A stretch of DNA of 16,021 bases from the IMG/VR virus record IMGVR_UViG_2713896902_000004, one strand, 5' to 3'. This DNA comes from a virus. Its lineage: Duplodnaviria; Heunggongvirae; Uroviricota; Caudoviricetes. The first letter of the stretch is position 1; each line of letters begins with the position of its first letter. The notes below the pieces were generated by a model that saw only the letters and a program-made list of their open reading frames with translations, was not told where the DNA came from and did no database searches. Made by a program: the position numbers and the translations under genes. Shown in pieces: positions 572 through 16,021 of this stretch.

Positions 572-832
572 TTATTTATAGTGATGAGCAATACTGAATA
601 AATCATGATAGTTAAGTGTTTTTTCTATATTCACAGAAATCGTTTCGGATGTCATCGATTCTTGCAGATGATAACCGGTATTTTTTACAAACTCTATCAT
701 TTTACCTCGAGTACTCCCCAGTACGGGATTACCTGCATTCATAGCTTCTATTGCCACCATATAAAATAACTCCTGAAATTTGGATGGAATAATAACTAAA
801 TCAGCCAAATAATAATAGCGATGCCTTTCCAC
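572..832 (-). pseudogene. Truncated group-1 glycosyltransferase remnant (C-terminal part only)
   Basis: Translation contains ...DLVIIPSKFQELFYMVAIEAMNAGNPVLGSTRGKMIEFVKNTGY..., resembling the GT1 C-terminal motif (PS..EgFg..EAMA.G.PV). Only 86 codons are open and there is no room for the roughly 250-aa N-terminal domain before the Tfa gene at 1073. AT-rich region. Confidence 0.45.
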
Positions 833-985
833 AAAAATACACCTCCTAATATATGACGGTATGAACTTGGTTGTTTAAATTATACTTAATTTTTTGAGGT
901 GTTTACATAGTATATGAATATGAGATATCGCATTCTATAAGTGAATGCGATCTATAGCATGGAATAAATAAAAAGGTGTTATAAT

Positions 986-1012
986 AAAAACTGGGTATGA
1001 AACCCAGTTTTT
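986..1012. terminator. Hairpin terminator downstream of the tail operon (usable in both orientations)
   Basis: Perfect 11-bp inverted repeat AAAAACTGGGT / ACCCAGTTTTT with 5-nt loop ATGAA, flanked by A/T runs; lies about 60 nt 3' of the Tfa stop (minus strand). Confidence 0.5.
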
Positions 1013-1072
1013 ATAAATTATATTATGAAAATAACATGGTTATTATGAGTAATATGGTAGTTTCATATAACT

Positions 1073-1630: not shown

Positions 1631-3098
1631 TAATATTTATTTGGACTGGTTTATATCGTACGCATTCCATTTTATCACCGCCGTCAACAAATGTGATTAC
1701 GCATCCAGCGGGGGCTGAAGTAGATGACTGAACTTCTGCTCCTAATTGTATGTTTTGTATATATCGAGCGTCAGATTGAGCTTTGGTATAAATGTTCACA
1801 GTGGTTGCTTTGCTGTTAGCAAGATCAAAAGCTGCCTTCACCGCGCTTGGTGTTGCCGCTTCCGTCGTACTTGTGCTGTTCGTTGCACTATTAAGCTTCA
1901 CAACTCCTTTTTGCGTCAGTGTGGCGTCGGGGATACCAGTGATTTGTCCCCAGGCGTGGGTATGACTTGCTGGTGCAGCCGCAATAGCCTTATCCATTGC
2001 CGCCTTCACCGCGCTCGGTGTCGCAGCTTCCGTTGTGCTGGTGCTGTTTGTGGTACTGTTAAGTTTCACAACTCCTTTTTGCGTCAGCGTGGCGTCGGGG
2101 ATAGCAGTGATTTGTCCCCAGGCGTGGGTATGGCTTGCTGGTGCAGCCGCAATAGCCTTATCCATTGCCGCCTTCACCGCGCTCGGTGTTGCAGCTTCCG
2201 TCGTGCTGGTGCTGTTTGTGGTACTGTTAAGTTTCACAATTCCTTTTTGCGTCAGCGTGGCGTCGGGGATACCAGTGATTTGTCCCCAGGCGTGGGTATG
2301 GCTTGCTGGTGCAGCCGCAGTAGCCTTATCCATTGCTGCCTTCACCGCGCTCGGTGTTGCAGCTTCCGTTGTGCTGGTGCTGTTTGTGGTACTGTTAAGC
2401 TTCACAATCCCTTTCTGCGCCAGCGTACCGTCAGGGATACTGGTTATCTGATTCCAGCCATGAGTATGACTGGTGGCGGCTTTGCTATTTGCCAGGTCAT
2501 ATGCGGTTTTTACTGCTTTTGGTGTGGCCGCTTTGGTTTCATCATCGCTATTAGTTGCATTACTCAGTTGCGTGAAACCTTTCTGCGTCAGTGTTGCATC
2601 AGGATGATTTCGTGATTGCTGATGTGCTTTCAGCGTGTCATCGACATATTCCCTGGTTGCCATAACAACTGAAGGATCTATCAACAGCGTCACCACATCC
2701 GCATTTGTCACTTCCATCACTGCGCGTATAACAATTTGCTTACTGGCACCTGCAGGTAATTGTGGTTTATAGGTTTCAGGGAATTTACCAATAGCGACCA
2801 GCGTGCCGTCGGTATCCAGCAACCCAACTTCGCGAACATACCAGCCTCCAACCTCTTCGGGAATAATCGCTTCTGCGATAACCCAGGCCGGATTATCTGG
2901 CGCAATTTTTAATGTATTGAGCTGACCACGCCAGACCTCATGGACTACTTTGGTCTGGATTTCTGTCGGTTCGATATATTTACCGTTGCCATCGCCAACT
3001 ACCATAGTTTGCAGACGGATCTGTTTTTGCTCCGCCAGTGCTGAGGCAATTTGGGTTTTGCCTGCAGCAGTTAATATTGTAAAAAATTCACTTGCCAT
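1602..3098 (-). CDS. Tail fibre protein (P2 gpH / Mu S-like N-terminus, repeat-containing shaft, divergent C-terminal tip)
   Basis: N-terminus MASEFFTILTAAGKTQIASALAEQKQIRLQTMVVGDGNG...NPAWVIAEAIIPEEVGGWYVREVGLLDTDGTLVAIGKFPETYKP matches the conserved gpH-type baseplate-attachment domain. Shaft has about 4 tandem ~56-aa repeats (SHTHAWGQITGIPDATLTQKGVVKLNSTTNSTSTTEAATPSAVKAAMDKA), the motif typical of side tail fibres. Confidence 0.9.
   Translation of the reverse strand: MASEFFTILTAAGKTQIASALAEQKQIRLQTMVVGDGNGKYIEPTEIQTKVVHEVWRGQLNTLKIAPDNPAWVIAEAIIPEEVGGWYVREVGLLDTDGTLVAIGKFPETYKPQLPAGASKQIVIRAVMEVTNADVVTLLIDPSVVMATREYVDDTLKAHQQSRNHPDATLTQKGFTQLSNATNSDDETKAATPKAVKTAYDLANSKAATSHTHGWNQITSIPDGTLAQKGIVKLNSTTNSTSTTEAATPSAVKAAMDKATAAAPASHTHAWGQITGIPDATLTQKGIVKLNSTTNSTSTTEAATPSAVKAAMDKAIAAAPASHTHAWGQITAIPDATLTQKGVVKLNSTTNSTSTTEAATPSAVKAAMDKAIAAAPASHTHAWGQITGIPDATLTQKGVVKLNSATNSTSTTEAATPSAVKAAFDLANSKATTVNIYTKAQSDARYIQNIQLGAEVQSSTSAPAGCVITFVDGGDKMECVRYKPVQININGAWRTISG
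1840..2530. repeat. Tandem direct repeats, about 168-bp unit, roughly 4 near-identical copies inside the fibre gene
   Basis: Near-identical 168-bp units begin at about 1861, 2029, 2197 and 2365, with more diverged copies on either side. In frame with the fibre ORF; they also create the spurious plus-strand shadow ORFs 1746..2615 and 2035..2451. Confidence 0.85.
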
Positions 3099-3100
3099 TA

Positions 3101-3832
3101 TTACTCCGGGTATACAGACATTATTTCGGTGCTCCAGTATCCTGTACCGATTTTCATCAGTTGGGATTGTGTAAGGCGATCAGGTCGATAAGGTAGTAGT
3201 TGGATATATTCCTCTACACAATAACCTGTCGCTAAAAATATTCTTGATGATTGGCTGATACTTTCTGCAACAGGAGGCAATACTGTAATGATTTCCCCTC
3301 CTTGCATGGCACTGCCAATAACTGGTATTGAGCTTTGATTAATAAGCCAAATAACAATACTTTCCAGTTTTGAACGAACATTTTTATATTCATGAATTAA
3401 TGTGATAAGTGCATTAAATTCATCTTCATTTAACCCTTTTTCCTCTAGTGTAATATCAACCTTAAAAAAATAAGCTTTCCCGCCATATTCAAACCATTCG
3501 GTAATAGTTCCAGGCAATGAGAGTATTTCCAGTACTCGCCGTACCGCCCAAACTGTTCCTTTATATTTATGTAACTCAATGGCTTGCTTAATTAACTCAC
3601 GCTTCTCTTGTTCATCAGTAGTAAATAACCAACCTTCCAGCCCCTGAACGTGGAATTGTTCTGCAAGGGCAGGTAATGCCGAAGCATCAACCAGGTCGAC
3701 CAGGTATATCATTAATGCCGTCAGATCGAGTTGCGCAAAACGTTCGGCGGCGATATTTGCCAGAGTTGAAAAACGCTCATCGCTGGCAAGCGGCGGCGGT
3801 GGCAGCAATTTATCCATCGCTGACTCCGGCAA
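3101..3832 (-). CDS. Baseplate protein gpI-like (P2 gpI / Mu gp48 family)
   Basis: Position between the gpJ-like gene and the fibre gene, size, and overlap with the gpJ gene (23 nt). Family assigned mainly by synteny and general resemblance. Confidence 0.7.
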   Translation of the reverse strand: MPESAMDKLLPPPPLASDERFSTLANIAAERFAQLDLTALMIYLVDLVDASALPALAEQFHVQGLEGWLFTTDEQEKRELIKQAIELHKYKGTVWAVRRVLEILSLPGTITEWFEYGGKAYFFKVDITLEEKGLNEDEFNALITLIHEYKNVRSKLESIVIWLINQSSIPVIGSAMQGGEIITVLPPVAESISQSSRIFLATGYCVEEYIQLLPYRPDRLTQSQLMKIGTGYWSTEIMSVYPE

Positions 3833-4925
3833 TCGTGACGTCTATTACAGTGCATTCCGCCCATTCATGCGCCTGCAAAATACGTTTTGTAGGCATGTTC
3901 AGCACAACGTCATAGACGCCATCGACTTGTAACACTTTGATTATCTGGTTTGGCACAATGTCCTGCCCCAGATGTTTCTGCCGCTGTTGCGTCCAGAGGC
4001 TAATCGCTTTACGCGCCGCAGCCAGTGTTGTCTCCTGATCGGCGGTGGTAAACAGCGTTAGCTGCGCACGAATTTCATACGGCACCCTAAGAGCACATTT
4101 CGCACTTACTTTGTCAGTCAGCGGACGTTTTTTCTCTTTACTCACTTCTTGTTCAATTTGCGCGAGTAGCTCGGTTCCCGGCAGACCATTCAGGGTTAGC
4201 GGGTAGAGCTCGACGCAGCCTTCTGGCAACCCTTCATCTGGCCCCAGTACTGCAACGTCAATAATTGACTGGCTAACCGAAAGTGTATGAAAGCGATATG
4301 CGCCATAGCTGCCGGCATTACTGAAGCTTTCTGGCGCCAGTTGTATACGCTGGCGTAGTGCATCATCGTTCTCTTCACCGCAACCGCCGGTTGTGGGAGT
4401 CAGATTAGTCACGTTGATATCGTAATAACCGATCCTGTCAACAAGGGCGCTAATCTGTGCAGGCTGCCAGCCATTGCCCTGTTCACCTGCTGCGAGGCTG
4501 GTGGCCGGAACGGCGATATGCAAACTCCTGGCCGGAAGCAGAACATCTTCATCGGTGGCGAACATCACGCTGTCAGAGGCACTGGCCCGCGTCCCCTGGG
4601 GAATCAGGATATTGCTGGTATACGCACTGACGACCGAAAACTGCAACGTCGTTTTTGCCGATTGTGCAGGTAAACGGTGAACACCCACCAGCTCCCCTAA
4701 ATAATCCAACATTGGTGCGCGGGAATACGTGACCAGGTTTTGTTTCGCCGCTTCCTGAATGGCGATGCGCACAAGGTTTTCACGATAGGCAAACAGGTCG
4801 ATGAGTAACCGTTCGGCCTGTGCCGGATAGAGTTTTTTACCGCTGGCATCTTCGTATTGCGCAATCATCTCGCTGGTAATTTGCGCAGGATCGCGGTCAA
4901 TAAAATCGGGTTCGGCTATCGCCAT
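3810..4925 (-). CDS. Baseplate wedge protein gpJ-like (Baseplate_J / T4 gp6-like)
   Basis: 371-aa ORF directly after the gpW-like gene with overlapping junction; sequence character typical of Baseplate_J proteins; conserved V-W-J-I-H-G order. Confidence 0.8.
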   Translation of the reverse strand: MAIAEPDFIDRDPAQITSEMIAQYEDASGKKLYPAQAERLLIDLFAYRENLVRIAIQEAAKQNLVTYSRAPMLDYLGELVGVHRLPAQSAKTTLQFSVVSAYTSNILIPQGTRASASDSVMFATDEDVLLPARSLHIAVPATSLAAGEQGNGWQPAQISALVDRIGYYDINVTNLTPTTGGCGEENDDALRQRIQLAPESFSNAGSYGAYRFHTLSVSQSIIDVAVLGPDEGLPEGCVELYPLTLNGLPGTELLAQIEQEVSKEKKRPLTDKVSAKCALRVPYEIRAQLTLFTTADQETTLAAARKAISLWTQQRQKHLGQDIVPNQIIKVLQVDGVYDVVLNMPTKRILQAHEWAECTVIDVTIAGVSDG

Positions 4926-5275
4926 AACACCTCCGTTGAGTTGATTACGCCGTCAGCGGCGCGCCATTGCACACGTAACGTCAGATGTTCACCGTCGATT
5001 ATCGGTGCTACCTTCAGCAACCGACATCGCGGTTCCCACTGGCGGATGGCTTCCACCGACTCCCGTACCACATGCGGGATTGCCCGCTCGATGGGGTAAT
5101 CGATGTAGTGCCACAAGTTGCTGCCAAACAGCGGTCTGTGGGGATCACTGCCGCGCGGCGTGCGCAGAATGATGTGTATTGCCTGGTGAATATCATCCAG
5201 TCCGCAGACGTATTCTTCAGGCCGCTGCAAGGCGGGTTGCCAGTGCAGCGTTGAGGGGCGTGTTTTTGTGTTCAT
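4916..5275 (-). CDS. Baseplate wedge protein gpW-like (GPW/gp25 family)
   Basis: 119 aa; ...DDIHQAIHIILRTPRGSDPHRPLFGSNLWHYIDYPIERAIPHVVRESVEAIRQWEPRCRLLKV... resembles the gp25/GPW family; sits between the V-like and J-like genes. Confidence 0.8.
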   Translation of the reverse strand: MNTKTRPSTLHWQPALQRPEEYVCGLDDIHQAIHIILRTPRGSDPHRPLFGSNLWHYIDYPIERAIPHVVRESVEAIRQWEPRCRLLKVAPIIDGEHLTLRVQWRAADGVINSTEVLWR

Positions 5276-5336
5276 GTGCTTATTTTCGCCCTGAACGGAC
5301 AGTGGGGATATTAAAGCGATTTAGAAAACTGATTGA

Positions 5337-5368
5337 TTAAAAAGAGAAAACCCGCCATCAGGCGGGTT
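5337..5368 (-). terminator. Intrinsic-terminator-like hairpin between the gpV-like and gpW-like genes
   Basis: On the minus strand, 4 nt after the gpV stop: AACCCGCC-TGAT-GGCGGGTT (8-bp GC-rich stem, 4-nt loop) followed by TTTTCTCTTTTT. Confidence 0.5.
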
Positions 5369-5373
5369 AAAAG

Positions 5374-6033
5374 CTAGTGTGAATGGTGATTTGAGTTACC
5401 ACCGCTATCCTGCAATGTGCCGCTGGCCTGAACGTTACCAATCACATTGACATTGCCAGTTATCGTGGCGGCGTTACCGATGCCTCCACTTCCTGCCATG
5501 CCACCCAGCCAGGTGAGTTTTTTCATTACTGTGACGTTACCAGTAAAGGTGCTCATGGGCGCATCTACCGTCACTGTCGCCGCTTTAATATCGACGGTAT
5601 CGGAAGTCACGGTGACCTGTTGGGCTTTAACCTCAACGTTGGGTGATGTCAGGTTAGTATGGTCAATAACCTCAATCACGATTTTCTCAATACCGCCGTT
5701 AATCGTAAGCTGGTGTGTGCTGCGGTCATATTCAAACGCTGCGCCATCAGAAAACTGGACGTAACGTTTATCTCGCGAGGCCACAGGCGCGGTGTCAACC
5801 GTAGAATAAACGGCCCCAAGTACCACGCCATCTTCGCCGTTGTCGTCCAGCAGAACTTCCACCTGCTCACCCATATCCGGTAGCCAGTAGTCTTTATTGT
5901 CCTGGGAATTACGTTGAAGTACCGCAAGCCAGTTACTCTTCAGATTGTCGCACTCTGGCAGTGTGACTCGCACCCGAACGCTGGTTTCGTCAATATCGCT
6001 GATAATCCCCGTTTGCCGGGTTACTCCCTTCAT
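5374..6033 (-). CDS. Baseplate central spike protein gpV-like (P2 gpV / Mu gp45 family)
   Basis: 219 aa; N-terminal OB-fold-like region (…NGEDGVVLGAVYS…) and a C-terminal Gly/Val/Asn-rich beta-helix-like region (GNVTVMKK…GNVNVIGNVQASGTL) typical of spike proteins; follows the gpD-like hub gene. Confidence 0.8.
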   Translation of the reverse strand: MKGVTRQTGIISDIDETSVRVRVTLPECDNLKSNWLAVLQRNSQDNKDYWLPDMGEQVEVLLDDNGEDGVVLGAVYSTVDTAPVASRDKRYVQFSDGAAFEYDRSTHQLTINGGIEKIVIEVIDHTNLTSPNVEVKAQQVTVTSDTVDIKAATVTVDAPMSTFTGNVTVMKKLTWLGGMAGSGGIGNAATITGNVNVIGNVQASGTLQDSGGNSNHHSH

Positions 6034-6042
6034 AGTGCCTCC

Positions 6043-7083
6043 TTACTGGCTGGTTGCTGGCCCGCGCGAAACGTCGATTTCAGTGGTATAGCCGCTGCGC
6101 ACAAAACTGTGAGTAGATTTATCAATCAGCCATTGTCCAGAAAGAATACCAAAATCAATGAGTTCGATTTTATTGCCTGCTGTCAGTTCCGGGCAGCCCA
6201 TCATCCTGAGTGTTCCGGTTTGCTGATATTCGTTGTGGCTGTCGAGTGCAGCGTTGGCCTTTGCCTGTGCCGCGCCAACATCCGTCGCCCGGCTGTTGAG
6301 TTTCAACGTGTCGGCACTGGTGCCGACTCCACGGGCTGACGGTTTTTGCTGGCTGTCGTGAGTGTAGATAACCAGTTCTTTTTTCTTACTATTTTGATGC
6401 TGTACGGTGGCGTTCTTGTAGATGCGATTAATGGTGTCTTTGAAGGTAAAGTGCGAAACCTCTTTACGGTCGATGGTTTTCACTGGCGCCAGGCAGCGTA
6501 GTGTCGGCAGATGTGAAAAAATCAGCTCTTTTGTCGTCACTTTCACGGCATAGCCATATTCGCTGGCCAGACGCTTGAGAAATCCAACATCGGTTTCGCC
6601 GTACTGTGTCACCCGGTCAATCGCCAGTGGCTCGATTTTGCCCACCAGCTTCAGACCGTGAGTTTGCGCGATACGACTGGCGATGGCCGAAAGCGTCGTT
6701 TCTTCAAAGCCCTGACTGTTACGGGTACGCAGCGCCTGATTGACGGAAGTGGCAATGCCATCAATATTTACCGTGGAAGGTGGTGCTGAAATATCAATTT
6801 TATCAATAACATACTGACCGCAATCGAGGAGCGTCTCCCCCTGATAACCCATATGTAGCGCCAGCGTATCGCCTTTGCCGGGATACCACTCTTTTATCCA
6901 ACGTCCATCGGTGTCATCCAGTGTAATGGCGATGGTATCTGACTCGTTTTTGATGCTGTCGTGGTAACTGATGCTGGTGACATAGGGCGTGATGTCATAA
7001 GTGATATCTTTATGCCCATACCAAAGGGTAAAAATGGGCGCGAGTGTGGCAAAGACGCCACCAGATACGCTTATCTCAGCCAT
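6043..7083 (-). CDS. Baseplate hub protein gpD-like (P2 late control gene D / Mu gp44 / VgrG-N family)
   Basis: 346 aa with the family character (…SDTIAITLDDTDGRW…PGKGDTLALHMGYQGETLLDCGQYVIDKIDISAPP…); conserved position after the gpX-like gene. Confidence 0.8.
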   Translation of the reverse strand: MAEISVSGGVFATLAPIFTLWYGHKDITYDITPYVTSISYHDSIKNESDTIAITLDDTDGRWIKEWYPGKGDTLALHMGYQGETLLDCGQYVIDKIDISAPPSTVNIDGIATSVNQALRTRNSQGFEETTLSAIASRIAQTHGLKLVGKIEPLAIDRVTQYGETDVGFLKRLASEYGYAVKVTTKELIFSHLPTLRCLAPVKTIDRKEVSHFTFKDTINRIYKNATVQHQNSKKKELVIYTHDSQQKPSARGVGTSADTLKLNSRATDVGAAQAKANAALDSHNEYQQTGTLRMMGCPELTAGNKIELIDFGILSGQWLIDKSTHSFVRSGYTTEIDVSRGPATSQ

Positions 7084-7283
7084 GGTGGTATCTCCGATAA
7101 GGTTTTGTTGACGGAAATGACCGGAATAATGAGTTGAATACCGGAAGGCAGTACCGGGTAAATGGCGACATGTGGATTGGCGGCGATGATGCGTTCATAA
7201 GCCAGCGCATCGCCGTAGTAATACCATGCCAGATTATCCCAGCGTTCGCCGTCGGTGGTGATATGTTCAAGGTATCGCATCAC
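7071..7283 (-). CDS. Tail protein X-like (P2 gpX, LysM-like baseplate protein)
   Basis: 70 aa; TTDGERWDNLAWYYYGDALAYERIIAANPHVAIYPVLPSGIQLIIP parallels the gpX pattern (T..GDTLD.I..RYYG…VL.ANP…LP.G..V.LP). ATGA overlap with the upstream gene. Confidence 0.7.
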   Translation of the reverse strand: MMRYLEHITTDGERWDNLAWYYYGDALAYERIIAANPHVAIYPVLPSGIQLIIPVISVNKTLSEIPPWLR

Positions 7284-8233
7284 CAGCTCCTCGTAATGGT
7301 CGCGGCAGCAAGCTGGCTCACTGCGGGAGTGGTTTGTTGTACCGTTGTTCGTGCCTGCTCAACCAACGTTGCGGCTTTATCGAACGTCGCTTCGGCGATG
7401 TCGTTGGTAATGTCGTCGAAAAGCGCCTGAGCATGGTCAACCAGCGTGCTGGCGTCTTTGGCGCAGTCCCGGATACCTGGCATGTTACCCAGTAAAGCGT
7501 TAATCTGCGCCGATAACGCTTTTGGGAGTCCTGCCAGCGTTTGCAGATCCATGGGCTGTTTAAACAGGGTTTCGATGGCGTCGATAGTCTTTTTCAACGA
7601 CGTAATTATCTTTTCACACTTTTCTTTTAACGCTTTGGCCTCTTTAACCAGTGCTTTCACTTTTGCCACCGTTTTTTTAATATCTTCAATGGCTTGAGTC
7701 AGCTCATCGAGCATCTCTTTGGCCTTACGCATACCTTCTTCAATGGCGTTCAATATCTGATCAAACCAGGACTCCACCATGTCTGGAAAATCGCTCGCCT
7801 TTTCGTCAATATTCGGGTCTTGGGTAGTAATTGCCGGGGGCAAGAGTGGATTTTTAGGATCACCGGTGTACTCCTGGAGCGACATTGTTCCGCTTTGAGC
7901 AATCACATTGCCCCAGGGATCGGTGTGCTGGTGGGTGGCGGTTAGCTCCGTAATCACAAACCAGCCGCGATAATCGCCATTGCCAAACACCAGAGCCATC
8001 GCTTTGTGGGCAAGCATGCCTTCACGCAGTCGATTCAGCTCTGTTGTGGGTTGGCAAAACTGGCTGTGCAAGGAAAATTCCAGTGCCAGCATATCCAGCT
8101 TATCGCCAATAAACTGCACGCCGGGTTTGCCTTCTATACGGGCATGTGTGGCGTAGTCCACGCCCATTGTGCTTTTAAAGCCGTCCCAGAATGTGACAAC
8201 CTTAAATTCAATCTCTCCTAAAACGGCATACAT
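7280..8233 (-). CDS. gpU-like tail/baseplate protein with a long alpha-helical, coiled-coil-like C-terminal extension
   Basis: The first ~120 aa loosely resemble P2 gpU-type tail proteins, and the gene sits in the gpU position (TMP-U-X-D). The C-terminal ~180 aa are rich in A/K/E/L heptad-like sequence. Start overlaps the TMP stop by 1 nt. Confidence 0.5.
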   Translation of the reverse strand: MYAVLGEIEFKVVTFWDGFKSTMGVDYATHARIEGKPGVQFIGDKLDMLALEFSLHSQFCQPTTELNRLREGMLAHKAMALVFGNGDYRGWFVITELTATHQHTDPWGNVIAQSGTMSLQEYTGDPKNPLLPPAITTQDPNIDEKASDFPDMVESWFDQILNAIEEGMRKAKEMLDELTQAIEDIKKTVAKVKALVKEAKALKEKCEKIITSLKKTIDAIETLFKQPMDLQTLAGLPKALSAQINALLGNMPGIRDCAKDASTLVDHAQALFDDITNDIAEATFDKAATLVEQARTTVQQTTPAVSQLAAATITRSW

Positions 8234-10608
8234 CAGGCATACCCCCGGCGCTGTTGTTGCGCCATTACGTCGTTAATCATTCTTTCCAGTTCGCGTTTAC
8301 TTATCGTCAACACGTTCTGAATGTCTTTAGTGGTGTTTTGTCCGTTACTCTGCACGGTAATTTGTGGCGAAAAATTCACCTGAACTTTTCCAGAGGAACG
8401 GGAGGGTAGCGTCGCCGGTTTGGTTACAGATTTACCAGGTAAAGAGGCCGATGCGGGTTTGGCTGCTGTATTTTTTGCCGCTGGTGTCGATGGCGACGTT
8501 GTCGTTTTACTGGATGGCGCGAGTTGTTTGCCCACAGGAGGCGTTAAAATCGCTCCGGCAACGCCTGGAACAACGGTCGTGGGGGAGATTGATGCGGTAT
8601 TCGTCGTGCTTGTAACAGCCGTAGCCGATCCTTCTGTGCTAATACCCATCGTGGTTTTTAGCCAGTCCGGTAAGGCGTTTTTGACCTGATCAATAATGCC
8701 TTTCAGAGCGGGGAAAGCATTCATTATGCCGTCAACCAGACTGCCCAGAAGATTGCTGCCGAACTCGCTAAAACTTGCAGGCATCTCGATACCAAACCAA
8801 TTCATCACACTGGAAAAGGCGCTGTAGAACAACTCCAGCGGCGACCAGTCGAGAATTAACCGGCAAATCCCTGCAATGCCGCCGTCAAAGGCCGTGGTGA
8901 TACGTTGCCAGATGGCGGAAAAGAATCTGGAGATAGGTTCCCAGTGGCGATAGATCAGATAAGCAGCGCCCGCAATCGCGGTGATGACCAGACCAATGGG
9001 ATTCATCAATAAAACTCTACCCAACCAGAAGACGGTCTGACCTGCCAGTTTCAATGCGCCAATCAGGCCACGGCCAAGCAGTTGCGTTAGCCATTTTGCG
9101 CCGTTATATAATGACTTAACCGCTGATAGCATCTTACTTGCCGCGCCTGTGAGCGTCAGACTTGCCCTGACTTTCAGGAAGATATCGACCAGACGAATAA
9201 ACGGCGAGGCGATGACGTTCGCGCCCAGCTTTAAAACATTCAGTGCGCCGTTAAACAGCCAAATCGCTCCGACGATTTTCGCAATGTTTTGCACCAGCGC
9301 CGGGTGTTCACGTAGCCAGGCGCTGAACTGGCGAATCACCGGAGTAAGGCTTTGCGCCAACTCGCCAATCAGCGGCATTAATTGCAAGCCAATGCTGAGC
9401 CATAAATCATTTAACGCCAGTTGTAACGTTTTAGTTTGTTCAATGGGCGAGGCCATCTGCACAGAAAAATCGTTGTCAATCATATTCTTACCGCTGTCTT
9501 GCATGGCGGAGGCTTTTAACTGGCGATACTCTTCCATATTCGCCAGCACAGGTGCCAGGAATTCCACTGTTTGCGCATCGCCGAACATTTCGCCCAGATT
9601 AAATTGCGTCACCATCGATTGCAGTGCGTTGCTGCGAGCAGATAAATCTTCAATTTGCATGGTGCGTTTGAAGGTGTCGAGGATCGCCGGATTCATCTTC
9701 TCAAGTTGCGTTTGCACGATATGAATCATGGCTTCGCTAACACCCATGCCGTTTTGCTGATGTTCAAGCAGAGAGCCTTGCAGATCGACGCCCTGGCTGA
9801 CGAACCAGTTATCGGTTTTTTTCGAAAAGATGGTTTGCAGAAAGTGGTCGAAATTCTCCGCCGCCACACTGGCGCTGGCACCATTTTTCATTGCGATCTG
9901 CATTGTGGCGGTCAGTTCAGCCATACCTTCTAAACCCTGTGCGCCAGTTTTAACTGCAAATTTGTCTATCCACTGCGCTTGCCCGGCAACGGTAGGCCCA
10001 CCGTTTTTGCTAATGCCGTACATCATGTTTTGCGCGGCGTGGAAATTTTCTGGCGCAATATTCAGTCGATCATGAGTCGCGAGCGCGGCATTCGCCCATG
10101 TTTCAGCACTTTCGCGCGTGGTGGTGGCTGCTTTGGCGATCTCCGGCATATAACGGTTGAGATCCTGCATCGACGACAAATTACCTTCGATTAGCACCTG
10201 GGCTGCGTTCTGTAAGGTGGTCTGCTGCTGGTTAAAATCCATACTCCAGTCGCGCAGATTAAGGCTGAGTGTCTCGCGGGTTGTATCATTCATCCCACCT
10301 TTGGTCGCCAAATTGACCATGTTGTCCTGAAACTCATACGGCAACTTCCAGTCAGGGACTTCAACATTGAATACTTTGCTAAATTGCCCGGCAAATGTTT
10401 GGGTTTTCTCCATCAGATCAGCGCGGTTTCGGCTATTTTCCTCCAGGCGGAGAGCGGAATCGGCAAGTTGCTGCGTTAGTTTGATTACTGCCGCTTGCTG
10501 AGAAGAGAGTGCTAACAATGTTCTGGCGTTGAGTGAGCCGTAACGGGCTATTGCCTGCGTCAACGTCTCATTACGCGTCTGAAGCTGGGTAATAATATCG
10601 TTGGCCAA
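8233..10608 (-). CDS. Tail tape measure protein
   Basis: 791 aa, largest gene of the module, directly after the chaperone gene; alpha-helical N-terminal half, several hydrophobic segments in the middle, Ser/Thr/Pro-rich low-complexity C-terminal region. Annotated start is TTG with AAGAGA upstream. Confidence 0.8.
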   Translation of the reverse strand: MANDIITQLQTRNETLTQAIARYGSLNARTLLALSSQQAAVIKLTQQLADSALRLEENSRNRADLMEKTQTFAGQFSKVFNVEVPDWKLPYEFQDNMVNLATKGGMNDTTRETLSLNLRDWSMDFNQQQTTLQNAAQVLIEGNLSSMQDLNRYMPEIAKAATTTRESAETWANAALATHDRLNIAPENFHAAQNMMYGISKNGGPTVAGQAQWIDKFAVKTGAQGLEGMAELTATMQIAMKNGASASVAAENFDHFLQTIFSKKTDNWFVSQGVDLQGSLLEHQQNGMGVSEAMIHIVQTQLEKMNPAILDTFKRTMQIEDLSARSNALQSMVTQFNLGEMFGDAQTVEFLAPVLANMEEYRQLKASAMQDSGKNMIDNDFSVQMASPIEQTKTLQLALNDLWLSIGLQLMPLIGELAQSLTPVIRQFSAWLREHPALVQNIAKIVGAIWLFNGALNVLKLGANVIASPFIRLVDIFLKVRASLTLTGAASKMLSAVKSLYNGAKWLTQLLGRGLIGALKLAGQTVFWLGRVLLMNPIGLVITAIAGAAYLIYRHWEPISRFFSAIWQRITTAFDGGIAGICRLILDWSPLELFYSAFSSVMNWFGIEMPASFSEFGSNLLGSLVDGIMNAFPALKGIIDQVKNALPDWLKTTMGISTEGSATAVTSTTNTASISPTTVVPGVAGAILTPPVGKQLAPSSKTTTSPSTPAAKNTAAKPASASLPGKSVTKPATLPSRSSGKVQVNFSPQITVQSNGQNTTKDIQNVLTISKRELERMINDVMAQQQRRGYA

Positions 10609-10708
10609 AATTGTTTCTCTTATAGATTGGTGATGGCCCGCTGGTTAGTTTTCTGAAAAATGGGCTGGGAAGAAATAAACCTGGCGAGCTTTGAAGAACT
10701 CGCAGACA

Positions 10709-10930
10709 TCAGGTCTGCGAGTCATATTCGATTTTTATTTGAGCGCTGGCTTCATCCAGCCAGTGACTAAAGTCATCTATCGTGAGCGAGTCAATCTCAC
10801 TGGGTGGAAAGCGAAACCATCTCGCCAGTAGCGCCATTGCCTGCCATAGCAAGGGGGGATTCTGTAGCCACGGTAAGCATGGATTGAAATCGTTTCTGCA
10901 ACGCCTGGTAATCCAGCAAATCCATTTCAG
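10709..10930 (-). other. Open +1-frame window overlapping the 3' end of the chaperone gene; candidate programmed-frameshift extension (gpE'-like)
   Basis: Relative to the chaperone frame, the +1 frame is open from 10930 to a TGA at 10709-10711, running about 29 codons past the chaperone stop (…FPPSEIDSLTIDDFSHWLDEASAQIKIEYDSQT). A C6 run (10853-10858; TCC CCC CTT in frame 0, CCC CCC TTG in +1) is a possible slip site. The -1 frame closes 8 codons after the chaperone stop. Confidence 0.35.
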
Positions 10931-11114
10931 CTAAATCTTCTGGTACCAGCCCGGTCATCGCTGCCATTAGCGGTTCATCCCATTCTTCCGGCTTTTCGCT
11001 GACCCGGCGTGCATTACGCATATCTTTGACTTTCAGGCGACGTAATTGTAGCGTGTCGATATTATTTCCTGCTGCCGACGTAAAGGGAAACTGTAAGATA
11101 TAATGCTCTTTCAT
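10797..11114 (-). CDS. Tail assembly chaperone (P2 gpE-like)
   Basis: 105 aa between the tube and tape-measure genes; …LQLRRLKVKDMRNARRV…LMAAMTGLVPEDLAEMDLLDYQALQKRF… resembles the gpE family; AAGGA Shine-Dalgarno upstream. Confidence 0.7.
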   Translation of the reverse strand: MKEHYILQFPFTSAAGNNIDTLQLRRLKVKDMRNARRVSEKPEEWDEPLMAAMTGLVPEDLAEMDLLDYQALQKRFQSMLTVATESPLAMAGNGATGEMVSLSTQ

Positions 11115-11140
11115 TTTGTATCCTTATTTATTTTTCGGAG

Positions 11141-11160
11141 TTCGGGGCCGTAGCCCCGAA
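11141..11160 (-). other. GC-rich intercistronic stem-loop between the tube and chaperone genes
   Basis: TTCGGGGC-CGTA-GCCCCGAA, perfect 8-bp stem with 4-nt loop, starting 4 nt after the tube stop; no U-tract follows on the minus strand. Confidence 0.4.
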
Positions 11161-11164
11161 TAAC

Positions 11165-11689
11165 TTAGCCACCGATGTTATTGCGATAGGTACTTAATTG
11201 ATCCACGCCGTTAACGCGGAAAATATTCGCCATATAATCCAGTTCAAGCAGCGTTTCACCATCGACTACTTGTTTAATATAAGTGCAGCCAAAGGCGCTG
11301 CTGAATTCCGGGTTTTCATTCTGTTTAAATGTGCCCAGTGGATTTTTTTTAAACATCACGGTTAAATGTGTGACTAACGCTAATTGATTCGCTTTCCCCT
11401 GAGAGTTATAACAATCGATACTGGAGCGACACTGTAATGCTACAGCCTGCCACGGGTTTGCCGTTTTACGCATTACGTCCTGGTAAAAGGAGTTCCATTT
11501 AATTTCCCCCTCCAGTTTATCGAAACCAGCCGGGAGTTCTATTTTACCCACCATGCCCAGTGCTTTATGTTCCTGCATAATTAAACTGACATCTGGCAAT
11601 TTAATTTCTGTTGCACGGCCTAAAAGATTATTACCATCGAGATAAATATTGGCGTTGGTAATACGGTTAATTTGAATTTTTCCAGCCAT
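11165..11689 (-). CDS. Tail tube protein (P2 FII-like)
   Basis: 174 aa immediately after the sheath gene with a 1-nt overlap; size and sequence character of contractile-tail tube proteins. Confidence 0.8.
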   Translation of the reverse strand: MAGKIQINRITNANIYLDGNNLLGRATEIKLPDVSLIMQEHKALGMVGKIELPAGFDKLEGEIKWNSFYQDVMRKTANPWQAVALQCRSSIDCYNSQGKANQLALVTHLTVMFKKNPLGTFKQNENPEFSSAFGCTYIKQVVDGETLLELDYMANIFRVNGVDQLSTYRNNIGG

Positions 11690-13116
11690 TAGCGATTGCT
11701 CTCCAGAGAGACTAAATATTCAGAGGTAATTTCAGTTTCAAACGTCAGACGTTCCAGCGGCGGCGGTGGGGTAAATTTATAGCTGAGCAATAAATGCCCG
11801 GCACTGAGTTCAGCCGGTGAATTTCGCGCCGGATCGTACCAGCACTCAAAGCCAAGCAGTGCGCCGTCGGCAATCAGTTTTCGGCCCCAGGTATTTACCG
11901 ATTCGGTCAGCGCGTCAATCAGTGCCTGATTGATCGGCATATCAATATACTGTTGACTGAAATAACGGATTGACTCATTAATTACATCGCCTGTCCGGCG
12001 AACGTTTTCAAAGTTACGCATATGAGTCACGGTTGGCCATGCCGCTGTGCGGTTGCCCCACAGGCGCAGACCAGAACCATAACTATTGAAAATAGTGGTA
12101 ATACCGTTTTCGTTGAGCTGATTCACTTCGCTTTGTGGATCATCAATCATTGCGGAAAGCGAACGTTCGATACCGGTAATACCCTGAATTTCCTGGTTTG
12201 AGTTGCTCCACCAGAAACCTTTTTCGAGGTCTACTTTGGCACGTAGCCCGGCAGCGCGCGAAGAGAGAGGTTCAAGAATTTCCTGGTTAGTGATGCCATC
12301 GTAAACTTTGACGTGTGGGTAGCATAAACGTGCACGATCAGAGCTGGTATTGAAGTTGATTGCGCCTTGCGAACCGCGTCCAGCCAATACCTGCTGGAAT
12401 GTAGTCCCAATTGGGGCATCAATGTAGGTAATCGCACCGAGTTTTTCCGCTTGTGCAATCAGCTCGGTAGTCACTGATTTTTGCGTACAAAAAACGGGTG
12501 CCAGCAGAATTTTGGCGTAGAAACCATACAAGTTATAAGTGTCCTGAAGGAGCCTCATCCCCGTGCGATCGCCTGCGGTATTAACGGCCCCGATAATATC
12601 GGCTGCGGTGACCTTTGTAGGGTCAACATAGGTATAAGTCGCGTAAACCTTTGCTCCTGCCGCAATTTCAGTTCCTGTACGGGTAATAACGCCGTCAGCG
12701 GCATTAACGCTGTATGATGTATTTTTGTATGTAGTGGAACTGATACTTGCTCTTAGCGTTACCGAACTTACCCCCGGATGAGTTAATTTAGCTTTATCGT
12801 CACTATTGAACGTAATGGTTTCATTGGTAATGTGTAGTCCATGTTTTACTGGATCCAGCACATTAATTACCACCACTGTACCGGCACCGTGATCATAAAT
12901 CGCCTTCAGCGCCTGCGGGATCGTAAAGTTAGCCTGAGTCGATCCAAACTGTGCCGCGTCACTTTCAGAAAGGCACAGCGTCGGTTGGTTTACCGGGCCA
13001 CAGGGAGCGGTACCGATTAAAGCGATTACAGCAGATTTTACTGCTTTTACCGGACGCGGGCCGGTTTCAATTTCAATGGTTTCTACACCGTGCAGATAAT
13101 TAGCTGCCATGTACAA
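11689..13116 (-). CDS. Tail sheath protein
   Basis: 475 aa; C-terminal conserved sheath motif (…GSGLRLWGNRTAAWP…); followed by tube gene with overlapping stop/start. Confidence 0.9.
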   Translation of the reverse strand: MYMAANYLHGVETIEIETGPRPVKAVKSAVIALIGTAPCGPVNQPTLCLSESDAAQFGSTQANFTIPQALKAIYDHGAGTVVVINVLDPVKHGLHITNETITFNSDDKAKLTHPGVSSVTLRASISSTTYKNTSYSVNAADGVITRTGTEIAAGAKVYATYTYVDPTKVTAADIIGAVNTAGDRTGMRLLQDTYNLYGFYAKILLAPVFCTQKSVTTELIAQAEKLGAITYIDAPIGTTFQQVLAGRGSQGAINFNTSSDRARLCYPHVKVYDGITNQEILEPLSSRAAGLRAKVDLEKGFWWSNSNQEIQGITGIERSLSAMIDDPQSEVNQLNENGITTIFNSYGSGLRLWGNRTAAWPTVTHMRNFENVRRTGDVINESIRYFSQQYIDMPINQALIDALTESVNTWGRKLIADGALLGFECWYDPARNSPAELSAGHLLLSYKFTPPPPLERLTFETEITSEYLVSLESNR

Positions 13117-13297
13117 TTTCCTCTACGTTATTTTGTTCTTCCTGGGGAATGATGAGAATCAAGTGATTTCGGGCAATCATGGTCATAACCCACTCATTGT
13201 CTTCTGGCAGATCAATTTCACTGTTCGGCCATAATAAGATTTCTTGACCGTCGGCAAGGGTGACGCCGCTTGCCGGACCGTTGTAGATATATTTCAT
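13100..13297 (-). CDS. Small conserved phage protein preceding the sheath gene (Mu gp38/DUF2635-like by position)
   Basis: 65 aa; ATGA overlap with the upstream gene and 17-nt overlap with the sheath start; assignment by position and size only. Confidence 0.35.
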   Translation of the reverse strand: MKYIYNGPASGVTLADGQEILLWPNSEIDLPEDNEWVMTMIARNHLILIIPQEEQNNVEEIVHGS

Positions 13298-13749
13298 TCA
13301 GTTTCCTCGTAATTAACTTCAGTAAGCAGGGGAAGATCCGTGCTGTCCTGTTCAGCGATAAACAGCGAGCTGGTCGCCATTTCCAGGATGTAGCGGCAGA
13401 AACCGTCGCTCTCACCCGTATTAATTTCTTTTTCAAGCCAAATAAGATGATCGCAATCAGGAGGCTGAAGGCCTCCCAATGCGCTGCGTATGTGATCAAG
13501 TGCGTTTAACGCATCACAATTTTTGCCAACAATAACGGTGGCGGTTAAGCGGAGTATTTGCTGTTGTACAATGGCATCACTACTTTCGGGCGTGGTGAAG
13601 ACAGAACCGCTATAATTAATAATCACCGTAATCTGTTGTGTCTGTGGAATATATTTTTGGGCATCCGTAGATGAAATGAATATGTCCATTTCAGGATGCC
13701 GATCACGTAATCTGACCACGACATAATTCATTACAGATAAAATTTTCAT
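13294..13749 (-). CDS. Putative tail completion/terminator protein (Mu gp37-like by position)
   Basis: 151 aa, first gene of the tail block after the terminator at 13855-13891; coupled to the next gene by an ATGA overlap; assignment by synteny. Confidence 0.4.
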   Translation of the reverse strand: MKILSVMNYVVVRLRDRHPEMDIFISSTDAQKYIPQTQQITVIINYSGSVFTTPESSDAIVQQQILRLTATVIVGKNCDALNALDHIRSALGGLQPPDCDHLIWLEKEINTGESDGFCRYILEMATSSLFIAEQDSTDLPLLTEVNYEETE

Positions 13750-13854
13750 ATGAGGTGTACCTTAATTACCGCTCACTTCGTTATCGTTGAAATGTATTCT
13801 GAAGCAGTGAGAGTGAAGAATCTTTTAATGTGATTTAGAGAAAAAATTGAATGG

Positions 13855-13891
13855 TTATAAAAAATCCCCACACTTACGTAAAGGTGGGGAT
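13855..13891 (-). terminator. Intrinsic terminator after the lysis cassette
   Basis: On the minus strand, 4 nt after the stop of the 104-aa gene: ATCCCCAC…GTGGGGAT (8-bp stem with a partly self-pairing 12-nt loop) followed by TTTTTTATAA. Confidence 0.55.
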
Positions 13892-13895
13892 GTAT

Positions 13896-14210
13896 TTAAT
13901 AACTGCCACGTTGTAATAACTCTATTTTGCTATATAAGGCATCCAGCTTTGCTTCTAATACTGCTTGTCCACGAAGATAATCCTCTCTGCGGACATAATA
14001 CAGTGGAAGTTCGGCACGAAATTCGAGAAATTCTCTTTCCAGTTTCGACCAGCTTGTTTCTGATTCCCTGCGGGCATTTTCCAGGGACTCAAAACGCTCA
14101 TTAAGTCTTTTTTCAATTTGCGCTAACAGCAATTTTCCGGCAGCAAACATTAATCCAACGAATGAAAGCATAAAGGAGATCACTTCCCAAAAATCGATAC
14201 TGAGTTTCAT
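13896..14210 (-). CDS. Membrane-anchored coiled-coil protein, possible i-spanin (Rz-like) or lysis accessory protein
   Basis: 104 aa; N-terminal hydrophobic helix (ISFMLSFVGLMFAAGKLLLAQI) followed by a charged helical region; immediately after the transglycosylase gene. Confidence 0.4.
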   Translation of the reverse strand: MKLSIDFWEVISFMLSFVGLMFAAGKLLLAQIEKRLNERFESLENARRESETSWSKLEREFLEFRAELPLYYVRREDYLRGQAVLEAKLDALYSKIELLQRGSY

Positions 14211-14222
14211 CGGCCCCTCTGA

Positions 14223-14828
14223 TTAGTGAAGACAGCTTGCCTGTCCCCAGAGTAAGTAGCGGGCGGCGTGTTGATAGAGAATCATCTTCGGATAGTGACG
14301 ATTTTCTCGCCAGTTTGCGGCGCTGCGCCCGGCGTTGACTTGCTCAACATGACCAAACCAGATGGCGGCATTTAACCCTTTTGTTGTCGCCAGTTTTTTA
14401 TCCCGGTTAATCCAACCCTGACCACCGTTATAGGCGCTTAGAGTAAACGCCATACGTTGACAATCATTTTTTGCAGAGATGTTGTTCCATAAATGCTGGT
14501 CGTACTGTACCAACGCCCGGATTGCCCAGGTTGGGTTATACGGTTTGTTTTCATGTAGCTGTGGATACAGTTGGCTTATCCATGTCGCTGTGGCAGGCAT
14601 AAATTGCGCCATACCTTGTGCGCCAACGGGGGAACGTACCATTGGCTGCCAGGCGGACTCCTGGTGTAATTGCCCGGCAAAGTCAGCCACAGGAGCGTTC
14701 AGTCCCCAGACTTCTCGGGCGGTACGAATCAATTCATTTCTCCATGCCAGAGAGGCTTGTGGTGGTTCAGACGCATTAAGCGGGAAAAGAACGAAAATAA
14801 TCATAGGCGCGATATATTTTAGCCACAT
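14223..14828 (-). CDS. Lytic transglycosylase (SLT-domain endolysin candidate) with N-terminal signal peptide
   Basis: SLT catalytic motifs: …QLHQESAWQ… (catalytic Glu-Ser), …GAQGMAQFMPATA…, …AYNGGQGW…. The longest ORF runs to 14927 but the likely start is the ATG at 14826-14828 (MWLKYIAPMIIFVLFPLNA, Sec-type signal peptide), 2 nt after the upstream stop. Confidence 0.85.
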   Translation of the reverse strand: MWLKYIAPMIIFVLFPLNASEPPQASLAWRNELIRTAREVWGLNAPVADFAGQLHQESAWQPMVRSPVGAQGMAQFMPATATWISQLYPQLHENKPYNPTWAIRALVQYDQHLWNNISAKNDCQRMAFTLSAYNGGQGWINRDKKLATTKGLNAAIWFGHVEQVNAGRSAANWRENRHYPKMILYQHAARYLLWGQASCLH

Positions 14829-14830
14829 CA

Positions 14831-15118
14831 CTATAGCCCTAACGCGACGGAAAGGCAGACTGCAGCCACGATGATGGCGCGACGAATCATTGCCGCTGCG
14901 TAGCAACGCGGTTCCTTCCTGGGGCAAAAAAAGTCAGGCCGTGCCCAGGGGAACAAACTACGATCGAGCCAGTATCCCAGCACTGCGGAAAGTGAAACCA
15001 GGCTTAGTTTATAAATGACGACCGGAATTTGTGCTGAAGATGTCCAGCCGATCAATGCAATCAGAGCAATGGCTGCAGCCAGCCAACCGGAAAGACGGGG
15101 AAAAGTGATTTTTTTCAT
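14831..15118 (-). CDS. Holin-like small membrane protein
   Basis: 95 aa with 2-3 predicted transmembrane helices; strong AGGAG 8 nt upstream of the ATG; first gene of the lysis cassette, tightly coupled to the transglycosylase gene. Function by position only. Confidence 0.4.
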   Translation of the reverse strand: MKKITFPRLSGWLAAAIALIALIGWTSSAQIPVVIYKLSLVSLSAVLGYWLDRSLFPWARPDFFCPRKEPRCYAAAMIRRAIIVAAVCLSVALGL

Positions 15119-15434
15119 ACGATATCTCCTGATAAGTGAGATACCAGTGTCTGCTTATCTCTTTGCTGAAGAATGAAAAAAGCTTTAATAAATAACTTTA
15201 AAAAATGTGTTCTCTTCGAATTAACATGTTCGCCAATTAATCTCCCAACTCAAAATAGAGAACTAAGGATAAAATGGCTGCCAGTTAGATAAATCCTGCG
15301 TTATGTGTAATGAAGGGGATGACATATTGCAATCATGGTCGTTACTTATTTGATTTTTAAAGTTTGTTTAAAAAAATCCTCGACTGTGAGGGAAACGAGC
15401 TTTTTGAAAAGTAGGCGATAAAAATGATAAATAG

Positions 15435-15454
15435 CACTGTATATGTATACAGTA
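15435..15454. promoter_or_regulatory. LexA (SOS) box
   Basis: CACTGTATATGTATACAGTA matches the E. coli LexA consensus TACTGTATATATATACAGTA at 18/20 with intact CTGT-N8-ACAG. Overlaps a possible minus-strand promoter (-35 TTTACA, 16-nt spacer, -10 TACAGT) and lies just downstream of a possible plus-strand promoter (-35 TTGAAA 15404-15409). Confidence 0.6.
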
Positions 15455-15673
15455 TCGTGTAAAATGGCACTCCTGTTGATAAGACATGTAATGAAAATAA
15501 TATATTTGTTTTGTGAATTTATAATTCGTTTTAATTTTTATTGCATATACATTGTGATTATTTATTTGCGTGTTGAATGTATTGAAAAGCAGTAATTGCA
15601 CCAACTTAGCGGATATCCGTGGTGTAACTCACATCAGAGTCCATACAGGGTGCAAGATATATGGAGATGAAAA

Positions 15674-16021
15674 ATGATACAAAAAGCAAAAGAGATGACC
15701 CGGACACCGGAGATCATTAACGATTTGGCGTTTCATGCTTCGCAAGTTCTGATTGAGAGCATCAATCTGGATAGCTCATCTGCGGAAAATGTTGGCTATG
15801 CCATTGCCGATCGCATGATGCGAAACTGGGGCGGACAAAGCATTTATTTTCCAAAAGGAATCGCCAGGCGAGCCTCGGAGCGGGACTATCAAATCTATAG
15901 CGAGTGCGATGGGCGCAACTACGCCGAATTAGCGAAGAAATATAATCTGACGCTGCAATGGATTTATAAGATAGTAAAACGCGTGCATACAGAAAAGCAG
16001 CAACAGCACCGTATGCAGTAG
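15674..16021 (+). CDS. Mor/C-family transcriptional activator (Mu middle-operon-regulator-like)
   Basis: 115 aa; …NWGGQSIYFPKGIARRASERDYQIYSECDGRNYAELAKKYNLTLQWIYKIVKRV… parallels the Mor C-terminal region (GGQ.Y.P.G…RD..I…GRN..EL…Y..T….YK..R) including the HTH; GGAG 7 nt upstream of the ATG; divergent from the lysis/tail block. Confidence 0.65.
   Translation: MIQKAKEMTRTPEIINDLAFHASQVLIESINLDSSSAENVGYAIADRMMRNWGGQSIYFPKGIARRASERDYQIYSECDGRNYAELAKKYNLTLQWIYKIVKRVHTEKQQQHRMQ

Follow-up and report, generated by a model that had tools for sequence, protein, structure and literature searches.

The 16,021-nucleotide stretch of Caudoviricetes DNA analyzed here (IMG/VR record IMGVR_UViG_2713896902_000004; hereafter the window) is best explained as a tailocin-type island of Escherichia albertii, derived by domestication from a BcepMu-like prophage that has lost its early and transposition genes, its head genes and its phage repressor. 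Its final feature is a mor-like gene of 115 codons (15674-16021, plus strand; ATG at 15674, TAG at 16019-16021), which is the sole regulator gene of the island. The overall scheme that we favor on balance is one in which the SOS response, acting through the host repressor LexA, would control mor, and the Mor-like protein would in turn activate the tail units. A sequence-only reading of the same DNA had suggested a cascade running from LexA through a Mor-like activator to lysis and tail promoters; the step from Mor to the tail genes emerges as well supported, whereas that from LexA to mor is putative, and the conserved promoter lying over the LexA box faces the holin gene.

The mor-like open reading frame is a real gene and encodes a full-length activator of the Mor/C family, as sequence, fold and promoter architecture jointly indicate, and the assignment made by the sequence-only reading is thereby borne out. 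In profile hidden Markov model searches, the Pfam Mor family (PF08765, curated cut-off 24.9 bits) matches residues 10-114 of the 115 with an E-value of 1.2e-37 and 128.6 bits, and PHROG 532, annotated as late transcriptional activator, matches with an E-value of 7.5e-36. Sequence matches in the PDB comprise Mor (1rr7, E=2.7e-9) and C (9l0x, E=2e-5) of phage Mu, and the linker WGGQSIYFPKG of the mor-like protein aligns with LGGGQVYIPRG of Mor. With 44 homologues as input, AlphaFold gave a model (pLDDT 86.5) that places helices at residues 13-30, 34-52, 69-77, 83-90 and 94-114, and the seven best PDB matches of this model are chains of Mu C and Mu Mor (probability 0.97-1.00); the TM-scores against these chains are only 0.33-0.43, as expected when a monomer model is compared with swapped dimers. 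The predicted structure thus presents the two-domain organization of the family, with an N-terminal helical dimerization domain, a glycine-containing β-strand linker and a C-terminal helix-turn-helix. NCBIfam and PADLOC returned nothing informative.

The exact match to this protein is WP_059251202.1 of E. albertii, and its nearest phage homologues are gp01 of BcepMu (48% identity) and KP12_298 of a BcepMu-like Klebsiella element (KP12; 45%). The tailocin Mor proteins of the seven genera compared here share at least 79% and up to 95% identity, and a gap separates them from the phage and prophage homologues, which reach at most 54% among the matches listed. A C-terminal extension of the phage homologues (..RQ..LF..) is missing from the tailocin clade in the alignments. 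Homologues of the BcepMu clade share the linker WGGQ.IYFP and, in the recognition helix, residues Q95, W96, Y98 and K102, and the conservation of the recognition helix fits a DNA site shared across that clade.

The evidence for such a site comes from the late promoters. Between 15118 and 1073, every large open reading frame is on the minus strand, divergent from mor, in agreement with the layout originally described; the products are holin, SLT endolysin, a membrane/lipoprotein, Gp37, sheath, tube, chaperone, tape measure, baseplate, fibre and fibre chaperone. They fall into three units: a lysis unit (13896-15118), with holin (14831-15118), SLT endolysin (14223-14828) and a 104-residue membrane/lipoprotein (13896-14210); a first tail unit (5374-13749), with Gp37, a small open reading frame, sheath, tube, chaperone, tape measure and gpU/X/D/V-like proteins; and a second tail unit (1073-5275), with gpW, gpJ, gpI, tail fibre and fibre chaperone. 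An intrinsic terminator (13859-13889, minus strand; CCCCAC..GTGGGG followed by U6, free energy -15.5 kcal/mol, z=-3.7), the stem of which shows compensatory changes in Salmonella and Superficieibacter, closes the lysis unit, and a second one (5339-5368, minus strand; also delimited as 5368-5349), with an 8-bp stem of which six pairs are GC and a T-run, follows the gpV-like gene. No σ70 consensus promoter is found in either of the short gaps behind these terminators. What both gaps contain instead is a 16-bp imperfect dyad (YYTAA-N6-TTAAW) followed, after 22 bp, by a -10-like hexamer, with no -35 element. At the promoter of the gp37 unit (P_gp37), the dyad is TCTAAATCACATTAAA (13824-13839, minus strand; TCTAA-ATCACA-TTAAA) and the hexamer is CAGAAT (13796-13801), in which A2 and T6 never vary among the tailocin and phage promoters; at that of the gpW unit (P_W), they are TCTAAATCGCTTTAAT (5310-5325, minus strand; TCTAA-ATCGCT-TTAAT) and GAAAAT (5282-5287), the latter 6 nt ahead of the gpW ATG at 5275.

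Taking the -10 hexamer as positions -12 to -7, the dyad is centered at about -42.5. The element bound by Mor in phage Mu spans 16 bp, consists of two 5-bp inverted repeats separated by a 6-bp spacer, is centered at -43.5 and replaces the -35 element (PMC4390567), and a cryo-electron microscopy study places an imperfect dyad immediately upstream of a non-optimal -35 in the Mu system (bioRxiv 10.1101/2025.05.02.651988). P_gp37 and P_W present all the marks of a Mor/C-type promoter (a -10, no -35 and a 16-bp dyad near -43.5), and the holin promoter presents them in part. The sequence-only reading had proposed activator-dependent promoters with weak -35 elements upstream of 15118, 13749 and 5275, and had suggested that the three regions be aligned for a common motif. 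The analysis supports all three of these positions. The two tail promoters do share a dyad with Mu geometry, each placed after a terminator, but the region upstream of 15118 lacks the canonical version and carries a non-canonical site only; as to the -35 element, it is altogether missing from P_gp37, P_W and the holin promoter.

The composite of box, 22-bp spacing and hexamer occurs exactly twice in the window, at P_gp37 and P_W. This pattern was derived from the two promoters themselves, and an independent test based on phage sites was therefore added. On the late strand of BcepMu, the motif NNTAA-N6-TTAAN is found only upstream of the holin gene and of gp32; in the Klebsiella element, it is found upstream of the holin, head protease, tail chaperone and gpW genes, and once more within an invertase gene. 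The boxes at phage promoters all have a -10-like hexamer at the same 22-bp distance, whereas the match in the invertase gene has none, and the gpW promoter of BcepMu holds a near-match with left arm TTTAG and identical spacing. When a score matrix trained on seven phage sites alone was run over the approximately 32,000 positions of the window, P_W ranked first with 22.0 bits (the maximum of 100 shuffles being 19.4) and P_gp37 second with 17.2 bits (95th percentile of the shuffles, 16.2). The gp37 box and its spacing are kept in 25 of 25 tailocin loci, while the Gp37 protein itself drops to 37% identity. Taken as a whole, these in silico results provide good support for the dependence of the gp37 and gpW units on the Mor-like protein, which we consider very probable.

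The alignment of these promoters bears also on their origin. The tailocin P_gp37, the holin and gp32 promoters of BcepMu and the head promoter of KP12 have in common the core TAAAGnnGATTAAAAG as well as A2 and T6 of the -10, which suggests that the deletion of the head genes may have kept the late promoter of the head operon and fused it to gp37. The gpW gene, in turn, has no Shine-Dalgarno sequence, and its -10 ends 6 nt before the start codon, so that the gpW mRNA is predicted to be leaderless. The same arrangement is seen in the Klebsiella BcepMu-like element and in BcepMu (positions 4870-4890 of L008 and 30800-30825 of L007 in our collection).

The gene order of the window equals that of BcepMu gp21, gp22, gp25 and gp37-52, and the tblastn identities to BcepMu are 48% for Mor and 63% for the holin. 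The island holds a complete contractile-tail set and a lysis cassette, the gene complement of a putative R-type tailocin, and no head, terminase, transposase or integrase genes are found among its genes. The sequence-only reading had seen in the orientation of mor a special departure from Mu, in which Mor and C are transcribed in the same direction as their target genes. The relevant ancestors, however, are BcepMu-like: BcepMu, the Klebsiella element KP12 and an intact Brenneria prophage all carry mor at the end of an early operon whose direction is opposite to that of the late genes, and the orientation is hence inherited. What is derived is that the early genes, the repressor and the head genes have gone, whereby mor came to lie within 555 bp of the holin gene.

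In Escherichia coli, copies about 88% identical to the island are present in 197 of 5426 complete genomes (roughly 4%), inserted between yjbD and lysC with mor as the last gene, adjoining lysC. In Salmonella, the same site is occupied by STM4198-STM4219, again with mor next to lysC, and related loci occur in Phytobacter, Dryocola, Superficieibacter and Enterobacter; a scan of genome contigs yielded four loci and a scan of viral contigs 20, mostly of the same genera. The presence of the island in merely this small fraction of E. coli genomes, the occurrence of damaged copies, such as that of E. coli ws5-3, in which the fibre gene is broken into pseudogene fragments (L001, 6805-8052), and of frameshifted assemblies, and the lack of any functional study in the literature that we searched could be taken to mean that the island is a decaying, cryptic prophage fragment in which mor and its boxes are functionless leftovers. 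Many E. coli copies may indeed be non-functional although mor and the control region are intact in them. We regard such a reading as improbable for the island as a whole, for all the tail, lysis and mor open reading frames are intact in the window, the Mor protein is 80-95% identical across the seven genera while the neighboring Gp37 falls to 37%, and conservation extends, amid diverged non-coding DNA, to the LexA box, to the Mor boxes with the distances within them, to the -10 hexamers and to the terminators, which show compensatory changes.

The region shared by the holin and mor genes (15119-15673, 555 bp) has a GC content of 28-39%, compared with about 50% within genes, and contains, as had been noted before, an SOS box. 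This box, CTGTATATGTATACAG (15437-15452), is a perfect instance of the LexA operator (CTGT-N8-ACAG with an AT-rich center) and the sole good one in the 16 kb of the window. It is present in all the loci of the seven genera, with half-sites CTGTAT and ATACAG that are near-invariant (CTGTTT in Dryocola) around four central bases that vary, and such a combination of invariant half-sites and variable center is, at the sequence level, the signature of selection for LexA binding. No LexA box is found in the control regions of BcepMu and KP12, and no phage in our collection resembles the holin-mor intergenic region; control by LexA hence appears to belong to the domesticated lineage.

On its right side, the LexA box is followed after four bases by a near-invariant decamer, GTGTAAAATG (15457-15466), from which a single genus differs at two bases, and in which candidate promoter elements for both directions are superimposed. 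Toward mor, a -10 hexamer TAAAAT (15460-15465, plus strand) pairs at 17 bp with a poor -35, TGTATA, located inside the LexA box. Toward the holin gene, the opposite strand of the decamer provides a -35 hexamer TTTACA (15463-15458) that pairs at 16 bp with the -10 hexamer TACAGT (15436-15441, minus strand), which falls in the LexA box and in the same alignment column in all seven genera. This arrangement supports a putative bidirectional promoter core under a single LexA operator. A second rightward candidate, TTGATA-16-TAATAT (15476-15503, plus strand; TTGACA in E. coli), is not covered by the LexA box and is a good promoter in Escherichia alone. Because the tail units have neither a LexA box nor a -35 element and mor is the only regulator of the island, a cascade from LexA to mor offers itself, and we deem it likely that LexA controls mor.

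The remaining elements of the mor leader are few. The Shine-Dalgarno sequence GGAG (15663-15666, plus strand) is part of the invariant ATATGGAGAT and is unchanged in the seven genera, and a conserved TTGAATGTATTG is located at 15573-15584. No plausible pair of hexamers was found in the last 140 nt of the leader, and a mor-proximal promoter in that segment was discarded. The Mor-box-like TATAATTCGTTTTAAT at 15520-15535, considered for autoregulation of mor, was likewise rejected, as it is not conserved even in E. coli, and so was an RNA structure just before the Shine-Dalgarno sequence (TTGCACC..GGTGCAA, 15597-15645), with a z-score of -1.0 and broken in the E. coli clade. The leader of that clade presents instead the hairpin AGCAGT..ACTGCT, with the compensatory version AACAGT..ACTGTT in one strain. 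Rfam gave no match in the window.

On the other side of the LexA box, the holin gene is preceded by a Shine-Dalgarno sequence, AGGAG (15126-15130, minus strand), and by a -10-like hexamer, GACACT (15146-15151, minus strand), which reads GAyACT or CATACT in all seven genera (compare GATGCT in KP12) and has no -35 partner. Upstream of it, a 24-mer (15183-15206; ATTTTTTAAAGTTATTTATTAAAG on the holin strand) is almost unchanged in the seven genera and contains two TTAAAG half-sites spaced 13 bp apart (TTTAA-N9-TTAAA); it is followed by a semi-conserved TTTTCgTTCTTC. The position at which a canonical box would be expected (15174-15189, minus strand) reads ATTAA-AGCTTT-TTTCA, so that the left half-site is kept and the right one is degenerate. 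The holin promoter of the Klebsiella phage carries a canonical box, implying that the tailocin lineage has remodelled its own. Between the LexA box and the holin promoter lies a further perfect dyad, TTTAA-AGTTTGT-TTAAA (15356-15372, here termed block 2), present in five of the seven genera; block 2 was rejected as a promoter box, no -10 being located at the 22-bp distance on either strand. A look-alike of the 24-mer together with the ensuing TTTTTCGTTTTA was encountered in an intergenic region of an unrelated metagenomic phage contig (L018, 1583-1625), one of the 20 loci from the viral contigs, that encodes an M23/LysM endolysin and has no mor or holin homologue; it is probably a chance occurrence in AT-rich DNA, though the match extends past the 21-mer used in the search.

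Several of the results weigh against a simple cascade from LexA through mor to all three units. Across the seven genera, a single σ70-like promoter over the LexA box keeps to a constant alignment column; it has nine of 12 consensus matches and points to the holin gene, and the candidate facing mor is weaker in the σ70 matrix (8/12 and a poor -35). In Dryocola, the decamer retains TTTACA while TAAAAT has become TAAAGT. The stronger mor-ward promoter of Escherichia starts 23 bp past the LexA box, where occlusion by LexA is not expected. A canonical Mor box at the holin promoter had to be rejected, with the left half-site only and a best matrix score of 6.9, and block 2, which has Mor-type arms but a 7-bp spacer, stands outside the roles that the model assigns. 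Finally, the literature search yielded no expression, binding or particle data for the island or for Salmonella STM4198-4219, and searches on STM4198-4219, on tailocins and lysC and on BcepMu tailocins retrieved no account of their regulation.

The direction of the conserved promoter raises the question of whether LexA might gate the lysis unit alone, with mor being transcribed from a LexA-independent promoter such as that at 15476-15503 and the tail proteins being made at a basal level or regulated by other means, so that DNA damage would mainly trigger release through lysis. The leftward TTTACA-16-TACAGT pair is in this respect the best promoter over the box and the only one conserved throughout, its -35 is the element preserved in the Dryocola variant at the expense of TAAAAT, the Escherichia promoter is not covered by the box, and no canonical Mor box is found at the holin promoter. 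We nonetheless find this parallel arrangement unlikely. About 310 nt of poorly conserved, length-variable DNA separate the leftward promoter from the holin ATG, the holin gene has its own conserved -10 and upstream 24-mer, and the 15476-15503 promoter is not conserved beyond Escherichia. Moreover, to express constitutively the activator of 12 kb of tail genes would impose a cost and would depart from what is generally known of PrtR/PrtN and RdgA/RdgB. A terminator directly downstream of the leftward promoter was also sought, and was convincing in Salmonella alone.

The same intergenic DNA lends itself to a second objection, namely that the AT-rich blocks at 15183-15206 and 15356-15372 are sites for host nucleoid proteins or silencers of the H-NS, IHF or Fis type, and that lysis is controlled apart from the tail. 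Their half-sites are spaced 9 and 7 bp apart rather than 6, their matrix scores are low and they sit in the AT-rich region described above; in addition, control of Pseudomonas R-tailocins by the H-NS family is reported (PMC12066065). Against this stand the nature of the blocks, which carry the TTAAAG and TTTAA/TTAAA half-sites seen in canonical boxes, the intact left half at the canonical holin position and the near-absence of change in the 24-bp block over seven genera, which is unusually strict for a nucleoid protein. That nucleoid proteins account for both blocks seems to us hardly probable; the 24-mer, considered by itself, may be a non-canonical activator site, a host-factor site or both.

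Returning to the cascade that we favor, its steps would be as follows. Host LexA, bound at the single SOS box at 15437-15452, would take the place of the lost phage repressor. DNA damage would release rightward transcription into mor from the -10 at 15460-15465, with a leader of about 200 nt, and probably also leftward transcription toward the lysis unit. The Mor-like protein would then bind its boxes and recruit σ70 RNA polymerase to the tail promoters, and the tail genes would be silent without it; it may also boost the holin promoter through the non-canonical 24-mer. A more elaborate version of this circuit can be formulated, in which a LexA operator set in a back-to-back promoter pair would have replaced the whole phage switch and would license the lysis and mor transcripts simultaneously, while the re-spaced Mor site of the holin would delay lysis or call for more activator, and gpW would be leaderless and activator-dependent in a manner conserved from Burkholderia phages to Escherichia tailocins. 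We put it forward tentatively, as doubtful in its entirety; were it true, the re-spaced holin site, with its half-sites 13 bp apart and its degenerate proximal half, would represent timing built into site geometry.

By analogy with phage Mu, the Mor-like protein may work as Mor or C do, in a single tier. The fold family is the same, with linker and helix-turn-helix conserved, and the target promoters are built alike: a -10 without a -35, plus an imperfect dyad of 16 bp (5-bp arms, 6-bp spacer) centered near -43. The identity to Mu Mor and C is nevertheless only about 26%, the arms YYTAA/TTAAW differ from those of Mu, the island has one activator where Mu has a Mor-then-C cascade, mor is transcribed opposite to its predicted targets, and control from upstream would be exerted through a host LexA box, where Mu has its repressor and early promoter. 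The resemblance to BcepMu gp01, KP12 and the Brenneria prophage is closer, as the divergent position of mor with respect to the late genes is common to all of them, and BcepMu and KP12 also share the box core TAAAGnnGATTAAAAG at their holin, head and gpW promoters and the leaderless gpW start. In these phages, however, mor ends an early operon of about 9 kb under a phage repressor, with no LexA box, whereas in the island the early, repressor and head genes are gone and only 555 bp separate mor from holin.

Comparable two-tier SOS circuits govern other tailocins. For the R and F pyocins of Pseudomonas aeruginosa, RecA-dependent loss of the repressor PrtR permits the expression of PrtN, the activator that binds boxes upstream of the tailocin genes; PrtN, unlike the protein described here, does not belong to the Mor family, PrtR is a dedicated autocleavable repressor and the pyocin tails are of P2 or λ ancestry rather than BcepMu. 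In Pectobacterium, the control of pectin lyase and carotovoricin by RdgA and RdgB was reportedly described by Liu and colleagues in 1994. RdgB is a small Mor-like activator of the damage-inducible pectin lyase and of carotovoricin, a Mu-type tailocin, and the chain from damage signal through repressor and small Mor-like activator to damage-inducible genes parallels our proposal. RdgB differs in being under a dedicated repressor, RdgA, and in lying away from the tailocin cluster, whereas the island has no repressor gene and a canonical LexA box. Mor proteins of the BcepMu clade are labelled 'DNA-binding protein RdgB' in phage records, and Pectobacterium RdgB was not among the 120 matches listed in the profile search. 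In a recent study on Pectobacterium, carotovoricin is described as a Mu-type tailocin that has no repressor of its own and is controlled by LexA (PMC13566846), so that even the LexA feature has a reported parallel. The Burkholderia tailocin BceTMilo, of P2/KL3-like origin, has deleted its head genes, has kept Ogr and a CI-like repressor and shows RecA-dependent induction (PMC5411513); it is like the island in retaining the ancestral late-gene activator after head-gene loss, and unlike it in that Ogr is a zinc-finger protein and not a Mor, and in having retained the phage CI-like repressor.

Some additional features of the island and its relatives may be recorded. The 104-residue membrane/lipoprotein of the lysis cassette resembles BcepMu gp25, and the cassette has no Rz/Rz1 spanin pair of the BcepMu gp23/24 type. 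In Salmonella, a gtrABC operon for O-antigen glucosylation (L006, 5158-7993; STM4204-4206) is inserted exactly at the gpV/gpW unit boundary, which in the window carries the terminator and P_W. The left end of the window (600-1800) is AT-rich (27-37% GC), with a glycosyltransferase group-1 fragment at 572-832 (minus strand; Pfam, 3e-7) and a bidirectional terminator with a 13-bp stem at 984-1014, just beyond the fibre-chaperone gene. The C-terminus of the fibre and the fibre chaperone look horizontally exchanged.

What is described here is no new kind of system but a known phage circuit in domesticated form. Given that the sequence from SOS signal to activator to tailocin genes is already known from pyocins and RdgA/RdgB, its value lies mainly in annotation and in the provision of a clean model system. 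Three traits set the island apart, namely a host LexA box that would stand in for a dedicated repressor, its descent from a BcepMu-like phage and a holin promoter that has been remodelled, and the most useful products of the analysis are the late-promoter box, the three-unit operon map with its terminators and the question of which way the LexA-controlled promoter points. The analysis sets out, in a form that can be tested base by base, how a hitherto uncharacterised tailocin-type island would be wired; the island occurs in E. coli, Salmonella, E. albertii and no fewer than four further genera of enterobacteria. From sequence, the analysis further defines the likely DNA site of the Mor proteins of the BcepMu clade. 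In a wider context, it outlines a possible domestication route for a phage tail module, which would consist in retaining one late activator and exchanging the phage repressor for the SOS repressor of the host.

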